From positions 108,856-172,855 of the forward strand of contig JAFVZL010000043.1 in NCBI GenBank assembly GCA_017508195.1: a stretch of DNA of 64,000 nt, in the 5' to 3' direction. A program made the position numbers and the translations under genes. A model generated the notes under the pieces. The model did not search any database. It worked only from the letters and a program-made list of their open reading frames with translations, and had not been told where the DNA came from. This document shows, one piece after another, positions 55,588-62,713 of the stretch (positions are counted from its first letter, which is position 1; every line of letters starts with the position of its first letter). The stretch is from Clostridia bacterium (lineage in GTDB: Bacteria; Bacillota; Clostridia; Oscillospirales; CAG-272).

Positions 55588-56832
55588 ATGGACAGCAAAA
55601 TGGAATTTGATTTTGAACAGGTTTATGACAGTGGCGTTAATATTAAGGTCATCGGTGTCGGCGGCGGCGGAAACAATGCCGTTAACCGCATGATTTCGGC
55701 AAATATAAGAGGCGTTGAATTCATCGCCGTAAATACAGATGCTCAGGTACTCGATACCTCTTGCGCATCGAAAAAGCTCATCCTCGGCGACAAGGTTACA
55801 AGAGGTCTCGGTGCAGGTGCTAACCCCGAGGTCGGCAGACGTGCTGCCGAGGAGTCCATCGACGAGATCAGAGCCGTGCTCCAGGGTGCCGATATGCTCT
55901 TCGTTACCGCAGGTATGGGCGGCGGAACAGGTACGGGTGCAGCTCCCGTTATCGCAAGAGTTGCAAAGGAAATGGATATCCTTACCGTAGGTATCGTTAC
56001 CAAGCCCTTCAACTTCGAGGGAAAGAAGAGATACATACAGGCGGAGGCAGGTATTGCCGAGCTTGCTAAGTTCGTTGACTCTCTTATCGTCATCCCCAAC
56101 GAGAGACTTAAGCAGGTAGAGGACACCAAAATCACTCTTGCGAACGCATTTGAAATTGCCGATGACGTTCTTCGCCGCGGTGTGCAGTCGGTATCCGAGA
56201 TCATCAACGTTACGGGCTTCGTTAACCGTGACTTTGCAGACGTTACCACCATCATGAAGAATGCAGGCTATGCTCACATGGGCGTTGGCTCTGCCAAGGG
56301 TGCAGACAAGGCGCAGCTCGCAGCAATGGCGGCTATCTCCTCTCCCCTTCTCGAGACCAGCATCGCAGGTGCGACGGGCGTTCTTATGAGCATCACAGCA
56401 TCTGAGGATATTACCCTTGAGGACGTAGAGATCGCATCTACAATGGTATACGAGGAAGCTCATCCCGATGCAACCATCATCTGGGGTGCTGCATTCAACC
56501 CCGAGCTCCAGGACGAGATAAGAATCACGATTATCGCAACCGGCTTCATCGACAGCGTTACCAACGAGAACGGTGTTTCCAACAAGACAGTTGAAAGCGA
56601 GAAGGCCGAAAGAATTGCAAATGCAGCGGTCGAGGCAAGCGGTGAGTACGTTGCCGAGCCCGTATCCGCCCCCGTGGTCGAGGATATCAAGCCCGAGCCC
56701 GCAGTTGCTCCCTCGCCCGTAACCGTTACCGTACAGACCGCTCCCGCTCAGGCAAAGGAAGAGGAGGATCTCACTGACGAGTATGAGGAGATCTTCACCT
56801 TCATCACCAAGAAGGCAAAGCCCTCTAACTAA
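55588..56832 (+). CDS. ftsZ: Cell division protein FtsZ
   Basis: 414 aa. [13 protein letters not shown] and tubulin signature [12 protein letters not shown] disordered linker and a short conserved C-terminal peptide follow. Confidence 0.97.
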
Positions 56833-56880
56833 GAAGAAGCATCCGTCTTTGCGGATGCTCCACCAAACAATATGATATCT

Positions 56881-56913
56881 GCGAGTGCCCCTTACGGCGG
56901 CACTCGCTTTTTT
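56881..56913 (+). terminator. ftsZ intrinsic terminator
   Basis: GCGAGTGCC...GGCACTCGC 9-bp stem followed by T6. An additional hairpin AGCATCCG/CGGATGCT sits at 56838-56859 without a T-tail. Confidence 0.85.
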
Positions 56914-56972
56914 GTGCGAGGGTGCATGATCTTGCCGGATTGTAACTAGCACGGCAGAAGATAAAGCCACAA

Positions 56973-56996
56973 GAAAAATGCCGGAAGAACTCCGGC
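56973..56996 (-). terminator. Minus-strand terminator-like hairpin at the outer edge of the left A-tract array
   Basis: Minus strand: GCCGGA-gttct-TCCGGC followed by ATTTTTCTT. It would stop leftward transcription before ftsZ. Confidence 0.5.
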
Positions 56997-57000
56997 TATG

Positions 57001-57345
57001 AAAAGTGAAAAAACATGCTAAAACCGAAGTCGAAGAGCTTGTCGAAACAGAAGCAAAAAGGCAAGTGGGAAAACAGGTGAAAACCGAGCAAAAAGTATTC
57101 TCGAAAAGAGGCGCGAAATGCTGTAGAAAAACGGATAAAAAAAGAGGGAAAAAGACCGCAAAAAAACAGCGGAAAAAACGCGTTAAAATTTTGCTCATAT
57201 CAAAGAAAAAAATAAGAGAAAAAACGATAAAAAACGCCTTTGAAAAATCGCGAATAATCCTTCGTTTTCCGTCTGTCCCAGCCGCCCTAAAAAAACGGTC
57301 GGTGACCGTAAAAAATTATGTCGTGAGGCGGTTACAAAAAAACGG
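57001..57345 (+). repeat. Left array of ~12-bp phased A-tract units (about 20 runs of A4-A7)
   Basis: Units such as GTGAAAAAAC, GGTGAAAACC, GTAGAAAAAC, ACCGCAAAAAAAC, AGCGGAAAAAAC, GATAAAAAAC. A-run starts are spaced mostly 10-14 bp apart. The grammar is 3-6 G/C-rich nt, then A4-7, then C or G. Confidence 0.8.
57289..57315 (-). terminator. Terminator-like hairpin at the inner edge of the left array (minus-strand sense)
   Basis: A7-ACGGTC-ggt-GACCGT-A6 on the plus strand, which reads as a stem followed by a U-run on the minus strand. Confidence 0.4.
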
Positions 57346-57359
57346 TGTCACTGAATAGA

Positions 57360-57760
57360 GAGAGCTGATATCGGGCTGACACCGACTGAGCGATTTCGAC
57401 TGTTAGGAAACGGAATGGATATCGGCTCGAACGAAAACCAAGGCGAGAGATAAGAATTCTCAACAGGCTGCCCTGACCGCTTTAATTACCATAGCGAGAG
57501 GCTACCGCCCTCCATAATGAAGGGAGAGAAACAGGGGCTACCAAGCTCGAGCGAGAAGCTAGGAGGGAAAATCTGCTACCTATATCTTATCAGGGGAGGT
57601 GCGCAAAGAGATCGTCTCCGACCGTCTCCGTAAGAGTAATTTTTAACTGTTGTGACGGTGAGTGCTGTAAGCCGTCGAGCGTTTATCCGATATCATGAAT
57701 AGTGTCAGAGCAATGGCCGGTTAGGCTGATAATTCTCCTTTAGCAAGAGATGGAGTTTAA
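57360..57760. ncRNA. Candidate structured RNA core of the ftsZ-downstream island (family unknown, strand unknown)
   Basis: GC-normal and ORF-free. 11-bp stem 57361-57371/57417-57427. GATATCGG appears twice, with a distal complement CCGATATC at 57686-57693. CCCTCC (57507) is complementary to GGAGGG (57561), and GACGG (57653) to CCGTC (57671). Threefold GCGAGAR and GCTACC direct repeats. No Rfam family recognised by eye. Confidence 0.25.
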
Positions 57761-57761
57761 C

Positions 57762-57776
57762 ACATTTTCCGAAAAT
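57762..57776. promoter_or_regulatory. CodY-box-like palindrome
   Basis: CATTTTCCGAAAATA versus consensus AATTTTCWGAAAATT (12/15 match). Confidence 0.25.
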
Positions 57777-57790
57777 ACACAAAAACGAAT

Positions 57791-57848
57791 TACATTTTTC
57801 CGTTCCCCATTTTTGGGGTGCAAAATTCCGTTCTACACAATTCCGTTC
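57791..57848 (+). repeat. Three direct 15-mer iterons TRCAnWWTTCCGTTC
   Basis: TACATTTTTCCGTTC (57791-57805), TGCAAAATTCCGTTC (57819-57833) and TACACAATTCCGTTC (57834-57848). The last two abut each other. Confidence 0.8.
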
Positions 57849-57924
57849 TGACATTTTAACCCTAAAACCGCTTTTTGAGCTCAAAAAATAGTGTCATACA
57901 CCCCGAAATAACGGAATTGTGTAG
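57833..57924. repeat. 15-bp perfect inverted iteron pair enclosing a concentric 16-bp perfect palindrome
   Basis: CTACACAATTCCGTT (57833-57847) pairs with AACGGAATTGTGTAG (57910-57924). TTTTTGAGCTCAAAAA (57872-57887) is centred within 1 bp of the midpoint of that pair. Confidence 0.85.
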
Positions 57925-58537
57925 TTTTTAAGTAAAAGTTTTCAACATCGATTTTGTGTTTTTTCAAATTACCAACAACAACCAACACGCTCTTTTCCGT
58001 AAAACGAAAAAGTGTATTTTTGATTTTTCGGGCTTTTTACACACCTGGAAACGGATGCTCCGAAATTGTATATCAGCCCATATCGGGCTCGGTTTCTCGC
58101 TCCAAAAAAGAACGTGAAAAACTTATTCAGAGTACAATATCGAGTACCCCTTCTCTCTTCCCAATAGCTTTCAATCAGGAGTCATACCCAAGCGAACGAC
58201 AGGCGGAAGCGTCATCACCGTTCAGTATCAAAATGCCATGATCAAAAAATTCTCCGAGCAGTTTTCCAAAAGAAAAATTGAACTCCGCATTAACCGCTCG
58301 ATATGCGAAAGCGCCCCCGGAAGATGGCTTTTAGTTTCAACAACGCGCCTCGACCTCAGCGTTGAGGTACGTCAGCACTTCCCTGCTCTAAGAATATACT
58401 CACGGAAGCAGCAAAGCATCAAGCCCTTCTCATAACTTCAAAGCTGCTTTCAACAAAAGCAAAGCAAGCTGAAAATAGCTCTTGAATACAGCGCATATCA
58501 AAAGACTATTTTCATCTTTCTTTTTACTCGCATCAAA

Positions 58538-58560
58538 GCGCGGTATCACCCGCGTTTTTT
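58538..58560 (+). terminator. Plus-strand terminator-like hairpin at the inner edge of the right array
   Basis: CGCGG-tatcac-CCGCG followed by a T-run that begins the T-tract array. Confidence 0.4.
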
Positions 58561-58750
58561 AACCTGTTTTCGGGGCGTAATTCTCAGTGCTTTTTCATCC
58601 CGTTTTCGCCGCCTGTTTTTTGCTGCTTTTTTCGTCCGTTTTTTAAGTGGATTTTTTACTGATTTTCGAGCGCGTTTTTTTCTCGTTTTTTTAACTCTTA
58701 CCAGCCCTGTTTTTCAGCGCTCCTTCCCCTCTTTTGCGGGTGCTGTTTTC
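58554..58750 (+). repeat. Right array of ~12-bp phased T-tract units (14 runs of T4-T7), the inverted counterpart of the left array
   Basis: Units CGCGTTTTTT, CCTGTTTT, GTGCTTTTT, CCCGTTTT, GCCTGTTTTTT, GCTGCTTTTTT, GTCCGTTTTTT, GTGGATTTTTT, GCGCGTTTTTTT, CTCGTTTTTTT and others. T-run starts are spaced 11-13 bp (or multiples). The reverse complement follows the same grammar as 57001-57345. Confidence 0.8.
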
Positions 58751-58874
58751 AAGCTGAAAAAGCTATGATGAAAAGACCTTTTGCGATTACCCTTTAATTC
58801 ATCGGAACATGTTACTTATACAAGCCCATAATTTCCATATACCGTAATGTCAAGATCAAAGCATCAGCTGCACC

Positions 58875-59094
58875 CACGCGCGTGCGTCCATGCGAGCGCA
58901 CGAGAATACCCTTCATGTGCTTCTTAAGAAAAAAGCAGGCAAAACTACTCCGCTTAATGCCGTTACGTGCACTGAGAGGCAAAATTTCGCTCTCTGTGCG
59001 CATTTAAGCGCTATTCTCGCACTCACGCTCATTTTTTATCGCTATATCGCAAATAAAGCGAATTTTCGGGCACGTGCGCACATGCATACGCGTG
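58875..59094. repeat. Cluster of alternating purine-pyrimidine tracts and short GC-rich palindromes
   Basis: CACGCGCGTG palindrome within a 13-nt alternating Pu/Py run (58875-58887). A 25-nt perfect alternating run GCACGTGCGCACATGCATACGCGTG (59070-59094) contains the palindromes GCACGTGC, GTGCGCAC, ATGCAT and ACGCGT. More ACGCGCG / TGCGCA / ACACGCGCA tracts extend to ~59130. Confidence 0.8.
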
Positions 59095-59145
59095 AGCAAC
59101 GCGCGAAACTGCGCAAACACGCGCAATATTTCCGTTTGATTGACG

Positions 59146-59205
59146 CAAAACAAAAAGCACCCGGCCCACTCACCGTGGCGTATACCACAGAGCCGAGTGC
59201 TTTTT
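59146..59205 (-). terminator. Terminator of the recD2 / mreB-like / microprotein operon
   Basis: Minus strand: GCACUCGGC...GCCGGGUGC, a 9-bp stem with one G-U pair that is a C-A mismatch on the plus strand. It is followed by TTTTTGTTTT, directly after the 39-aa ORF stop. Confidence 0.65.
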
Positions 59206-59221
59206 ATAATTGTTTTTCCGA

Positions 59222-59341
59222 TCAACCGATTATGTAGAACAGAACGGTCGCAATCGAGCCGAACAGAAGAAGTGCTGCGAGCGAGCCCGCAAGAATCTTT
59301 GCGGTCATAGAGACCGTCTTCTTTTCTCCGTTGTTTTTCAT
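59222..59341 (-). CDS. 39-aa membrane microprotein (not in the supplied ORF track)
   Basis: My own translation: MKNNGEKKTVSMTAKILAGSLAALLLFGSIATVLFYIIG. A GAGGAG RBS lies 7 nt upstream and overlaps the mreB-like stop codon. It has a single TM helix. Confidence 0.6.
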   Translation of the reverse strand: MKNNGEKKTVSMTAKILAGSLAALLLFGSIATVLFYIIG

Positions 59342-59352
59342 TTTATATCTCC

Positions 59353-60399
59353 TCAATGTTTTTTACTGTTTTCGTAATACTTTGCGATATCCTTAGTAAT
59401 ATTCTTCCCTGCCACCTTAGCGCGGTCGGGTAAGAACGCGTTTATCCTCGAAAGACCCTTGGCAACGCAATCGGCAGCCCCGTCGGGCTTTGTTACCGAG
59501 ATACCGAGGACCTTAGAGATAAGCATCTCGATACCGAAGAGCTCGGCACCGCCGCCCGTAAGAACTATTCCGTTATCGAATATGTCCTCTACGGCATCGG
59601 TGGGAATCTGCTTCACCGCCTCTGCGATCTCAAATATAAGCTTCTGTAACGGTGCCTCAAAGACACCTACTATATCTTCTGTGGTTACGTTTATCTTCAG
59701 CTTGTTACCTGTCAGCGACAGAGTTCCCTCAATATCGAGGCTATCGTTCGGCTTGCCCTTCCAGACCGCACCGAGCTTCTCCTTTATCGCCCTTGCAACT
59801 ATCAGTGAGATATTTACCTCACCCTGATCGAATATATACTGCTTTACTGCACGGTCGAAGTCCTCACCGCCTATTTTGGCACGTTTCAAGGTGAGTATGC
59901 TTCCCTTATGCAGAATTGCTATCTCGGTAGCAAGTGCACCGATATTGACCGATATAACGCTCATCGCAGGAGAATATCCCGCACCGATAAGCGCTGCCAT
60001 AGGACGAGCCACACAGGTGGCGGTATCAACGCCCGACTCGACGAGCATCTGACAGAGCTCCTTTTCCTGCTTCGGGGTGAAGTCAGACGGAACACCTACA
60101 ACACAGCGTATCTTCTCGGCATCGCCAACCGCGCGCATCGCGCTCGCGATAACCTCTCTCGTTATCTGATGGTCGAAGAGGAGCCCGTTCTTAAAGGGTC
60201 TGACAAGCATGCCCTCCGAGATGTCCTCGCCCTCCTTACCGTACATAAGAGCATCGGCACCAACGGCAATTATACGGCGCTGATCGGGTCGCGGCTGCTT
60301 ATAGACGAGCGCAACGGATGGCTCTCGGTATATCTCAGCAATACAGTCGCTGATGGTGATATTGGCGTAACCAAGGTCGAGACCTATCTTCGTTACCAT
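59353..60399 (-). CDS. Divergent MreB-family actin-like protein
   Basis: ATG at 60399 follows an AAAGGAG RBS. IGLDLGYANITI (phosphate-1), EPSVALV, RPFKNGLLFDHQITREVI, VNIGALATEIAIL, GIVLTGGGAELFG. It aligns by eye with MreB/Mbl motifs but is clearly divergent. Confidence 0.8.
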   Translation of the reverse strand: MVTKIGLDLGYANITISDCIAEIYREPSVALVYKQPRPDQRRIIAVGADALMYGKEGEDISEGMLVRPFKNGLLFDHQITREVIASAMRAVGDAEKIRCVVGVPSDFTPKQEKELCQMLVESGVDTATCVARPMAALIGAGYSPAMSVISVNIGALATEIAILHKGSILTLKRAKIGGEDFDRAVKQYIFDQGEVNISLIVARAIKEKLGAVWKGKPNDSLDIEGTLSLTGNKLKINVTTEDIVGVFEAPLQKLIFEIAEAVKQIPTDAVEDIFDNGIVLTGGGAELFGIEMLISKVLGISVTKPDGAADCVAKGLSRINAFLPDRAKVAGKNITKDIAKYYENSKKH

Positions 60400-60490
60400 G
60401 CCGTACTCCTTTCTGTCGTTTATGCCCGGATGAAAATAATTATAATACAAAGCGCGTGAAAATTCAAGTGCTTTTCAAATATTTAAGCTT

Positions 60491-62713
60491 TTATCTGTCT
60501 TTGTCGAATTCCGCCCTGAGGCGCGACTTAAGAGTGGTGTACCTCTCCACCTCGCGATTATTGGATATCATCTTATAGGGGATATCGCTTCTGCCGACAA
60601 GAATGACCATCCTCTTCGCACGCGTCACCGCAGTATAGAATAAGTTCCTCGTCTGAAGCATGGGCGGACAGTAATACATCGGTATGATAACAACGGGATA
60701 TTCGCTGCCCTGACTCTTATGAACGGTGATGGCATAGGCTAGCTCGAGCTCGTCGAGCTTCTCAAATTCATACTTTACAAGTCTGTCGTCAAACCTGATC
60801 TGCATAAATTTATCTGCCGTATTTATCATTTCTATCGTTCCGATATCACCGTTAAAGATGCCGATGCCCTCGATCCCGCACTTCTCCCATTCGATCTCAT
60901 AATCGTTCACTACCTGCATCACGCGGTCTCCCTCGCGGAAGACTGTAGAGTGTGCGGTGTGCTCTTTTTTAAGCTTTGCCGGTGGATTTATCCTCGCCTG
61001 AAGCTCTCGGTTAAGGACGTCTACACCGCCGTATCCGCGCCTCGAGGGAGTGATTATCTGTATCTCGTCGCGTATGGATTTTCCGTACGCCTTAGGCAAT
61101 CTTTCGGTAATAAGGCTTGCGACCGTATCGGCTATCGTGCGCTCGTCCTCTCTGCGAACAAAGAAGAAATCGCGGTCTACGGAACCGAGCACCGGGGGCT
61201 TGCCCTGATTTATCAGATGTGCATTCGTAATGATAAGGCTCTCCTCGGACTGTCTGAACACCTCGGTAAGCCTTACCGTAGGTATCGTACCCGAGGATAT
61301 GAGATCAGCAAGGATATTACCCGCACCGACACTCGGCAGCTGATCAAAGTCACCGATAAGAACGAGTCTCGCGCCTCTTGGCATCGCATAAAGCAGCGCG
61401 TGCATAAGTGTAAGGTCTATCATCGATGCCTCATCGACGATGACGACCTCTTCATCGAGCGGAAATCTCGCATTGCGGTTAAAGCGCGTTGTGTTAGCCT
61501 CCGTGCGCTCCATCTCGAGAAGTCGGTGAATGGTCTTCGCCTCCTCGCCCGTCGTCTCGCTGAGCCTCTTTGCCGCTCTGCCCGTAGGTGCCGCAAGCAC
61601 CGTATCTATGCCCGTATCGTGGAATATGGATATAAGCGCCTTTACTATCGTGGTCTTTCCCGTACCCGGGCCGCCCGTTATGATGGTCACACCGCCCTCA
61701 AGGCTGCGGTATATCGCCTCTCGCTGAAGGCTGGCATAGGTCACGTTCATTCCGACCTCGACCTTACGCATGAGACTCATGATATCGTCTCTCGGCATTG
61801 TAACCGCCTCGCGGCTCATCTGATATAGCCGCTTCGCAACGAATGCCTCCTTATAGCCTACATCGGCGGTCATTATGTACTCAGATTCTCCCTCTCGGTA
61901 TAACTCGAGCTCATCGGTAGTCAGGAAAAGCTCTATTGCCCGAGAGACGGTATCCTCACCGAGGTCAAGCAAATTCGACACAGCGCAGACAAGTTTCCCT
62001 CGAGGCAGACAGGTGTGTCCGTTAGCACCCGCGTTGTATTCGAGTATATATTCTATACCTGCGCGTATCCTCTGCTCTCCGTCCTTCGGATATCCGAGAG
62101 AGGCAGCTATCGCATCCGCTTTATCAAAGGGGATGCCCATCTCACCCTCGCACAGAACGTAAGGGTTATCTCTGACGATACCCACGGCAGATGCTCCGAG
62201 CTGCTTATAAACTCTGTTTATCTCACCCGTGCCGATGAAATCCTTGAAGAATATCATTACGTTGCGAAGCTCACTCTGACCGCGGAAGCTCTCGGAAATG
62301 GCTCTCGCCTTCTTTGCCGTAATACCGGGGATATCCGTCAGCCACTCGGGGTGGTTCTCGAGCACGTCAAAGGTATCAAGTCCGTACTTATTTGCGATCT
62401 TCAGTGCGGTCACGGGACCTACGCCCTTGACCGTTCTAGAGGAGAGGTACTGTATGATGCCATCAATCTCCTTAGGCAGAGATTTCTCATAGCTCGTAAA
62501 TGCAAACTGCGCTCCGAACTCACGGTGATAGGTCATACTGCCCGTAAGCTTTACTATCTCGCCCTCAGCGGGAGAGGCTATGATGCCTACCGCAGTAACG
62601 AGTCCTCCGTCATCGCCAAGCACCTCGAGGACGCTATAATCGTTCTCATCGTTTCTGAAAACGATATTTTCTATCTTACCCGATAACACCTTAACGGCTC
62701 TGTCGATATTCAA
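60491..62713 (-). CDS. recD2: ATP-dependent RecD2-type (RecD-like) DNA helicase
   Basis: 740 aa. N-terminal OB/HhH region, SF1B motifs (GGPGTGKTT, VIVDEASMID, LIGDFDQLPSVGAG) and a C-terminal SH3-like domain (ITVHKSQGSE). Confidence 0.92.
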   Translation of the reverse strand: MNIDRAVKVLSGKIENIVFRNDENDYSVLEVLGDDGGLVTAVGIIASPAEGEIVKLTGSMTYHREFGAQFAFTSYEKSLPKEIDGIIQYLSSRTVKGVGPVTALKIANKYGLDTFDVLENHPEWLTDIPGITAKKARAISESFRGQSELRNVMIFFKDFIGTGEINRVYKQLGASAVGIVRDNPYVLCEGEMGIPFDKADAIAASLGYPKDGEQRIRAGIEYILEYNAGANGHTCLPRGKLVCAVSNLLDLGEDTVSRAIELFLTTDELELYREGESEYIMTADVGYKEAFVAKRLYQMSREAVTMPRDDIMSLMRKVEVGMNVTYASLQREAIYRSLEGGVTIITGGPGTGKTTIVKALISIFHDTGIDTVLAAPTGRAAKRLSETTGEEAKTIHRLLEMERTEANTTRFNRNARFPLDEEVVIVDEASMIDLTLMHALLYAMPRGARLVLIGDFDQLPSVGAGNILADLISSGTIPTVRLTEVFRQSEESLIITNAHLINQGKPPVLGSVDRDFFFVRREDERTIADTVASLITERLPKAYGKSIRDEIQIITPSRRGYGGVDVLNRELQARINPPAKLKKEHTAHSTVFREGDRVMQVVNDYEIEWEKCGIEGIGIFNGDIGTIEMINTADKFMQIRFDDRLVKYEFEKLDELELAYAITVHKSQGSEYPVVIIPMYYCPPMLQTRNLFYTAVTRAKRMVILVGRSDIPYKMISNNREVERYTTLKSRLRAEFDKDR

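Follow-up and report, generated by a model that had tools for sequence, protein, structure and literature searches.

Inverted A-tract arrays with an 11.75-bp period around a conserved DnaA-box element between ftsZ and an mreB-like operon

Why should two arrays of regularly spaced A-tracts, facing in opposite directions, bracket a noncoding segment between two converging operons? The question is raised by a 64,000-nucleotide stretch of a Clostridia genome (G000:C33:108856-172855, hereafter the window, to which all positions below refer; G000 is this genome, and other G numbers denote other species of the genus). Both arrays, here called arms, sit in a 2.4-kb gap without genes between converging ftsZ and an mreB-like operon. 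The left arm (57001-57345) carries A-runs on the plus strand, the right arm (58554-58750) carries T-runs on the plus strand (i.e., A-runs on the minus strand), and between them lies a 1.2-kb noncoding core with a genus-conserved element at its centre.

The arms were first pointed out in an earlier note made from the letters alone, which offered four possible meanings: curved or writhed DNA, degenerate terminal inverted repeats, transcription-termination zones, and binding arrays on RNA. In the current study, the underlying observation is confirmed and found to be statistically exceptional. We propose, with about even confidence, that the arms may be architectural or topological elements acting at the level of DNA shape, that is, writhed A-tract DNA flanking a conserved DnaA-box element.

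A matched pair of phased arrays

The earlier note had counted about 20 runs of A4-A7 in the left arm and 14 runs of T4-T7 in the right, spaced mostly 10-14 bp apart with a mean of about 12 bp, and had argued that this was not random AT-richness. All three statements held. Between 57001 and 57345 there are 21 A-runs of at least four nucleotides (A4-A7) and two T-runs, and between 58554 and 58750 there are 14 T-runs of at least four nucleotides and no A-runs, against a window background of 1.6 runs per 300 bp (sd 1.9). Centre-to-centre distances fall mostly at 10-14 bp or at multiples thereof. The periodogram peaks at 11.75 bp in each arm, with a power of 8.0 on the left and 6.3 on the right (where the period may be given as 11.75-12 bp), and none of 500 dinucleotide-preserving shuffles matched the power of either arm. 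In the left arm, the phase holds across the gaps in the array, over the whole 345 bp. Thus, the phasing analysis that had been suggested returned a coherent period beyond that of shuffled controls. The runs do not keep register with the helical repeat (about 10-11 bp), the power at 10.5 bp being about 0-0.3 in the arms.

Seen against the rest of the genome (2.0 Mb in 54 contigs, 88% complete, recovered from animal gut metagenomes), the two arms are the densest A/T-run arrays, with 15 and 13 runs per 200 bp. The organism encodes Spo0A and is therefore placed among the endospore-forming Firmicutes. An unbiased scan of all 2.0 Mb, with 180-bp windows and periods of 10-12.5 bp, yielded power above 7 in only two windows, which are the two arms; the runner-up reached 3.6. 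Outside the arms, the phasing of A-runs is about 10.5 bp (their pair correlation peaks at 10-11, 21, 32, 42, 51, and 62 bp), and the other dense arrays have assorted peak periods with a power of at most 3.6. The two arms are a matched and exceptional pair. Both are covered, with 0 differences, by metagenome contigs from four gut runs belonging to four studies, and they are therefore neither an assembly artefact nor variable in length in those samples. Contigs from two runs (X6 and X9) depart from this sequence beyond 57538, over 36 bases or more (57538-57595), and carry 1-base insertions after 57900 and after 59348; strain variation thus affects the spacers and the core rather than the arms.

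The claim that both arms follow one word grammar was likewise borne out: common to both are a G, a run of A4-7, a C, and a short G/C-rich spacer, in addition to the period. Strand composition is mirror-symmetric: the left arm is 68% purine on its plus strand, and the right arm 73% purine on its minus strand. From this grammar, the earlier note had concluded that the arms are degenerate long inverted repeats, a description of which the grammar and the period stand and the collinear homology does not. The left arm aligns to the reverse-complemented right arm with a score of 42, well above mononucleotide-shuffled controls (25 ± 4), but permuting the units of the right arm gave 35.6 ± 4.9, and 35 of 300 such permutations reached 42. 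Comparable scores, 38 and 43, came from aligning the two arms with an unrelated array on contig C1. Because grammar and period are common to both arms, while their collinear similarity is no better than that of unit-permuted controls, the arms are inverted arrays and not inverted repeats by descent. Tandem Repeats Finder detects only short, weak rows within them, so they are not the product of recent tandem amplification. That nothing of the units is kept except the A-run with its flanking G/C, together with these weak rows, fits selection on spacing better than recent tandem duplication or base-specific read-out.

A search for other copies of the unit grammar, also called for in the earlier note, was made with a fixed pattern of six A4 cores at 12 bp (up to 2 mismatches), which in G000 matches the two arms and the C1 array only. 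The latter, a third 12-bp-type T-run array (G000:C1:15490-16050; L109 1990-2550), lies in the 650 bp that separate a tadA-like deaminase gene from rimM-trmD; it has two DnaA boxes inside and a TTGACA-17-TAGAAT promoter at its right end.

The conserved core and its counterparts in the genus

The order of converging ftsZ and the mreB-like gene, with recD2 behind the latter, is kept in 18 of 20 relatives, where the gap between the two units measures about 500-1100 bp (1.7 kb in G007). In the gap of G000, 57784-58040 is the one segment with a match in the 212 other species of the genus that were searched, and it is syntenic. As judged from these comparisons, the gap is a conserved DnaA-box cluster to which about 0.9 kb on the left and 1.1 kb on the right was added in this species alone.

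The conserved noncoding element (57784-58040) contains two direct and two inverted TACAnnTTTCCG-type, iteron-like boxes, a DnaA box (GTTTTCAACAT) at 57938, and a degenerate second box (TTACCAACA) at 57969. The two DnaA boxes of the conserved 250 bp stand about 22 bp apart and are followed by CAA-rich repeats. Across the genus (L041, L042, L043, L044, L048), at least two DnaA boxes of the form TTTTCAACA / TTATCCACA / TTTTCCACA are present, again followed by CAA-rich repeats. The conserved segment of about 250 bp resembles a mini-oriC or DnaA-box cluster; a gene for its cognate binding protein is not apparent.

The 9-mer TTTTCAACA is the DnaA box of this organism and differs from TTATCCACA at two positions. 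The dnaA-dnaN spacer (G000:C23:29099-29267; L009) carries six copies of it, followed by CAA-trinucleotide repeats; contig C23 has its GC-skew minimum nearby, and this spacer is probably the chromosomal oriC. A second intergenic cluster (G000:C10:42690-43020) holds three TTTTCAACA boxes, two TTTTCCACA boxes, and one CGGAAAAGTGTA box, the last being a motif that also occurs in the element at the ftsZ locus. Two roles tied to DnaA were considered for the arm locus and rejected. It is not a replication origin or terminus: dnaA, the six TTTTCAACA boxes, and the GC-skew minimum are on C23, and contig C33 has no global skew switch at the arm locus. The idea that the arms are arrays of degenerate, low-affinity DnaA boxes is made attractive by the central boxes and the right-handed geometry, but their units are no more box-like than spacer-shuffled controls. 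Allowing up to two mismatches, TTTTCAACA matches 5 times in the left arm, where the controls predict 4.4, and 4 times in the right arm, where they predict 1.6, a count that 29 of 500 controls reached.

Arrays of the same kind recur at other loci of the genus. The fixed 12-bp pattern matches 68 of 150 other genomes, in some cases inside Lys/Glu-rich coding repeats. Pairs with an A-array on the left and a T-array on the right of an AT-rich core were observed at a radical-SAM activase/tRNA-Pro locus (G104:C90, G121:C61, G085:C35), after glyA (G104:C125), and between convergent genes (G156:C11). The orthologous radical-SAM activase/tRNA-Pro locus in G116 and G105 has single arrays; after thiF in G105:C76, an A-array and core are followed by a T-rich flank below the periodic threshold; and a single array in G105:C7 has the opposite orientation to its core. 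The ftsZ locus of G007 carries an A-array with a period of 11.75 bp (power 5.1), although there the orientation is direct, not inverted. The layout is thus recurrent in a sample that is small and partly orthologous, and we do not claim the orientation rule as statistically established. An order-wide search with the fixed pattern returned mostly A-rich low-complexity sequence or coding repeats, with nothing firm on distribution beyond the genus.

The AT-rich cores of the relatives' modules are homologous to one another (70-80% identity over 110-290 bp), and this dispersed core is absent from G000, whose arms and spacers show only array-to-array low-complexity matches to those loci. An AT-rich sequence of about 150-250 bp ('aaattttcgaaaaa...ttttcgtaaac'), dispersed among several loci and several species of the genus, always adjoins A- or T-run arrays (L091 2586-2740; L092 3084-3239; L093 2728-2887; L094 2760-3000) and may be a repeat element or a common regulatory module. 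Arrays at the relatives' divergent-promoter locus adjoin perfect TTGACA-17-TATAAT promoters, whereas those in convergent contexts do not. In several species (L092 = G104:C90, L096, L098, L100, L090), two such promoters, divergently oriented, flank the arrays of the radical-SAM activase/tRNA-Pro locus; the rightward one is directly followed by a small hairpin and U-run and lies 250-590 bp upstream of tRNA-Pro(CGG).

To the left of the gap in G000, ftsZ (55588-56832, plus strand; Pfam Tubulin 8e-53, FtsZ_C 1e-33) is the last gene of the dcw cluster and converges on the gap; a terminator scan and the sequence itself place its intrinsic terminator, a GC hairpin followed by T6, at 56881-56913. On the right, the MreB-family gene (59353-60450, minus strand), with recD2 (60491-62713, minus) upstream of it, also converges on the gap. 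A small hydrophobic open reading frame (ORF) of about 40 aa (59222-59356, minus), directly after the mreB-like gene and likewise facing the gap, occupies the same position in G041, G057, G054, G023, and G007. The operon ends in a bidirectional terminator hairpin at 59152-59205 (-34.4 kcal/mol on the minus strand, -21.8 kcal/mol on the plus strand), and each flanking unit is thus closed by a terminator of its own. The left spacer (57346-57783) has no genus match, contains no long ORF assignable to a family, and does not surpass shuffled sequence in folding (z of +1.1 and +0.9); the right spacer (58041-58553), also without a genus match, gave folding z-scores of -2.4 and -2.1, which are not decisive. 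Beyond the right arm, the outer region (58751-59147) includes GC-rich alternating purine/pyrimidine palindromes, and no family or homolog was found for it. Pfam recognized no family in any ORF of the gap, including a 117-aa ORF through the left arm that stays open because the arm is T-poor, and a tRNA/tmRNA search of the gap found none.

Predicted shape of the arms and competing explanations

Of the four meanings first offered, curved or writhed DNA is the best supported, although the planar arc that curvature would ordinarily suggest is not what the model predicts. If bends recur at intervals of 11.75 bp along a helix of 10.5 bp per turn, each would be turned by about +40 degrees relative to the last, giving a right-handed superhelix. 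A wedge model, used for the curvature prediction that the earlier note had asked for, gave a predicted bend of 15 degrees per 10 bp in the arms as opposed to 8 ± 1 in shuffles, i.e., about twice as much. Predicted torsion was +22 and +44 degrees per 10 bp in the arms and 0 ± 14-20 in shuffles, and each arm would make about 1.85 right-handed superhelical turns. Synthetic arrays of 10, 10.5, 11, and 12 bp behaved as expected in the same model, passing from left-handed through near-planar to right-handed paths.

The modelled arms would therefore follow a strongly bent, corkscrew-like path rather than a planar curve, and, being related by a dyad, would bracket the 1.2-kb noncoding core with its centre of DnaA and iteron-like boxes. 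In that position they might fix or absorb writhe, either positioning a plectoneme or insulating the core from the two converging operons; alternatively, a protein that wraps DNA (for example, a nucleoid protein, gyrase, or a DnaA oligomer) might find in them a pre-shaped surface. Periods above 10.5 bp have been read as fitting plectonemic, negatively supercoiled DNA, and phased A-tracts have been found both to localise plectonemes and to precede promoters (PMC4132750, PMC6301789, PMC9825172). We favour a reading in terms of DNA shape because the period is helix-related and non-integer, the units consist of little but A-runs, the arms form a matched pair, and comparable pairs recur around different cores in the genus. 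The arrays, their period, their uniqueness in the genome, their absence from orthologous loci, and the recurrence of the layout in the genus are observed, whereas the shape is that of a model and the role is inferred.

Several points weigh against this reading. Bending alone would not distinguish the two strands, but the arrays of this locus and of relatives have a strand orientation, a hint that some strand-specific process (for instance, transcription or mutation bias) is involved. Searches of 212 other species of the genus, among them G041, the closest relative found (85% FtsZ identity), gave no match to the arms or spacers, and any function would therefore have to be recent or dispensable. 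The arms stand 440-510 bp away from the DnaA boxes, so that a direct link between them would be conjectural, and arrays at other loci of the genus lack DnaA boxes. Finally, the Bolshoy-Trifonov wedge parameters used are approximate, and the helical repeat of 10.5 bp is an assumed rather than an in vivo value.

A bolder version would extend the shape reading to an as yet undescribed class of self-contained intergenic modules found throughout the genus, in each of which a purine-rich A-tract array with a period of 11.75 bp, a core that is AT-rich or binds protein, and a mirrored array would together form a right-handed writhed scaffold. Next to ftsZ, such a scaffold might hold the DnaA-box cluster in a set topological state, or wrapped around a right-handed DnaA oligomer, and thereby couple DnaA titration or replication control to the cell-division neighbourhood. 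We regard this extension as speculative and decidedly improbable.

Since most of the dense A/T-run arrays of G000 precede gene starts or strong promoters (e.g., rplM, rpmE, and rimM), the arms could instead be far-upstream activating arrays, UP-like and made of curved DNA, that serve promoters of unannotated transcripts. We consider this unlikely. Two variants can be drawn, with inward promoters at the two inner edges or outward promoters beyond the outer edges. The outward layout would match the relatives' divergent-promoter loci, in which T-runs on the sense strand stand upstream of perfect TTGACA-17-TATAAT sequences, and the relatives' arrays adjoin 12/12 promoters at the radical-SAM/tRNA-Pro locus. 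At the ftsZ locus, however, neither strand of 56833-59230 has a sigma-A-type site with at least 10/12 matches. Three 9/12 matches with 18-bp spacers come closest, all leftward (57945, 58422, and 58501); the weak sites at 58501 and 58422 do lie 50-130 bp inside the right arm, on its core side, but the left arm has no adjoining candidate, and a core promoter within about 100 bp was not found. The flanking genes converge on the gap and have terminators of their own, and the spacers offer no conserved ORF, Rfam family, or strongly structured RNA for such promoters to transcribe: Rfam 15 gave 0 matches in the window at the gathering score, and only chance-level hits (E above 0.8) in 56700-59400. 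Moreover, the arms are phased at 11.75 bp, as opposed to about 10.5 bp in the promoter-upstream arrays of G000. Activation from upstream thus fails at this locus for want of promoters. Among the promoter-upstream arrays, a tandem A-tract array of GAGAGAAAAC type before the rplM promoter is kept in two species (G000:C12:45480-45520; L007 690-740, G006).

Slightly less probable still is the view that the arms are a functionless by-product of strand-biased mutation or slippage, tolerated between converging genes. The confinement of arms and spacers to one species, alongside a central element that is conserved, would be expected on this view, as would the mirror-symmetric purine/pyrimidine asymmetry of the strands. 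Orthologous loci also differ in whether they have an array and in how long it is, as in the interval from the promoter to tRNA-Pro, and one array in G105 lies between a stop codon and its terminator. Slippage, however, should generate an integer period and similar units, whereas the non-integer period of the left arm is coherent over 345 bp of very diverged units. The arms are, in addition, two matched arrays 1.2 kb apart that constitute the sole such signals in 2 Mb, and their sequence is identical in contigs from four studies.

The suggestion that each arm is a termination zone, in which repeated units of GC clamp and U-run would stop transcripts leaving the core in either direction, survives in part and is improbable as an account of the arrays. 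What stands is one hairpin with a U-run towards the inner edge of each arm, facing outward. At 58535-58560 (plus strand), a hairpin followed by U6 (-12.1 kcal/mol, z = -4.3) marks the inner edge of the right arm, the U6 tail being the first T-run of the arm, and at 57295-57309 (minus strand), a hairpin followed by U7 (-7.1 kcal/mol) lies in the inner third of the left arm. A third hairpin, followed by AUUUUUCUU, occupies the outer end of the left arm at 56980-56996 (minus strand; -11.1 kcal/mol, z = -3.9) and is a predicted stop for leftward transcripts. The remaining U-runs of the arms, about 30 in number, have no stem before them and so do not qualify as intrinsic terminators. A single terminator on each side would have been enough, the core has no promoter of note to feed such zones, and the arrays of relatives lie upstream of promoters.

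A mobile origin, with the arms as degenerate terminal inverted repeats of a non-autonomous element or as two insertions of such elements, is very unlikely. It would account for the inverted orientation of the arms and for a short imperfect direct repeat, GCTATGA(TG)AAAAG, at both outer ends, and other species do carry modules of A-array, AT-rich core, and T-array with homologous cores at several loci per genome. The direct repeat (GCTATGAAAAG / GCTATGATGAAAAG, 56995-57005 and 58763-58776) is 11-14 nt long and imperfect, and could be due to chance. Against a mobile origin, the arms share no collinear similarity beyond their grammar, the region is single copy in G000, the dispersed core of the relatives is absent from G000, and Pfam identified no transposase nearby. 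In relatives, the central 250 bp persist at this locus without arms or spacers; with an ancestral, syntenic element as its interior, the unit cannot have inserted in one piece. The weakest proposal, that the arms act as RNA in the form of A- or U-rich arrays bound by Hfq or another RNA-binding protein, draws on the general resemblance of regular U-run and A-run units to Hfq or S1-type binding preferences and is barely credible, in that a search of the genome (88% complete) gave no hfq gene, neither a promoter of note nor an Rfam family is present, and the non-integer, helix-related period points to the geometry of duplex DNA. Among sequencing runs containing the region there was no RNA run, only DNA contigs, which speaks neither for nor against a transcript.

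Comparison with known systems

Phased A-tracts are a known way for a sequence to encode DNA shape, and the arms can be set beside several described systems that use them or resemble them in layout. The closest in kind are the bacterial A-tract clusters with a periodicity of 10-11.5 bp (PMC4132750, PMC3372288, PMC3431218, PMC516772), which, like the arms, consist of same-strand A4-7 runs near the helical period, are intergenic, and have a predicted bend above that of shuffled sequences. The arms differ from them in their period of 11.75 bp and their lengths of 197 and 345 bp; they are also a mirror-image pair around a core, and their predicted path is a right-handed corkscrew rather than a planar bend. 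The A-tracts of UP-element-like promoters (PMC9825172) have their counterparts in many arrays of G000 and its relatives, including 12-bp ones, that stand directly upstream of strong sigma-A-type promoters. The arms have no adjoining strong promoter, however, their flanking genes converge, and they extend far past the reach of the alpha subunits of RNA polymerase.

The pinning of plectonemes by curved DNA (PMC6301789) is comparable in that A-tract-phased curvature would be expected to position supercoils, and a period above 10.5 bp, as found in the arms, is the one tied to plectonemic DNA (PMC4132750). Published examples concern short curved segments at the tips of plectonemes, whereas here two long arms, predicted to be writhed, flank a 1.2-kb core. 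Miniature inverted-repeat transposable element (MITE)-like repeats share the inverted ends and the noncoding core, and a homologous AT-rich core is dispersed in other species of the genus; the present region differs in being single copy, in arms without collinear similarity, and in an interior that is ancestral. Lastly, the low-affinity DnaA sites of the E. coli oriC are said, in work of 2011 by Rozgaja et al., to form oppositely oriented arrays with 11-bp spacing that flank a central box. The likeness lies in two opposed arrays with a period of 11-12 bp on either side of DnaA boxes, and in a T-run that opens TTTTCAACA, the DnaA box of this organism. The 9-mers of the arms, however, are no more box-like than controls, the boxes are 440-510 bp off, and the true oriC is on another contig.

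As far as we could find, no element type described in the literature consists of long, matched, mirror-image arrays at 11.75 bp. Should the arms prove to fix writhe or to recruit a protein that wraps DNA, the locus would make a clean natural test case of how sequence by itself can place supercoils or shield a regulatory site that lies between two converging operons. Should they have no function, they would still be an example of marked helix-related periodicity emerging fast in a single species, which would bear on how genome-wide periodicity signals are to be read.

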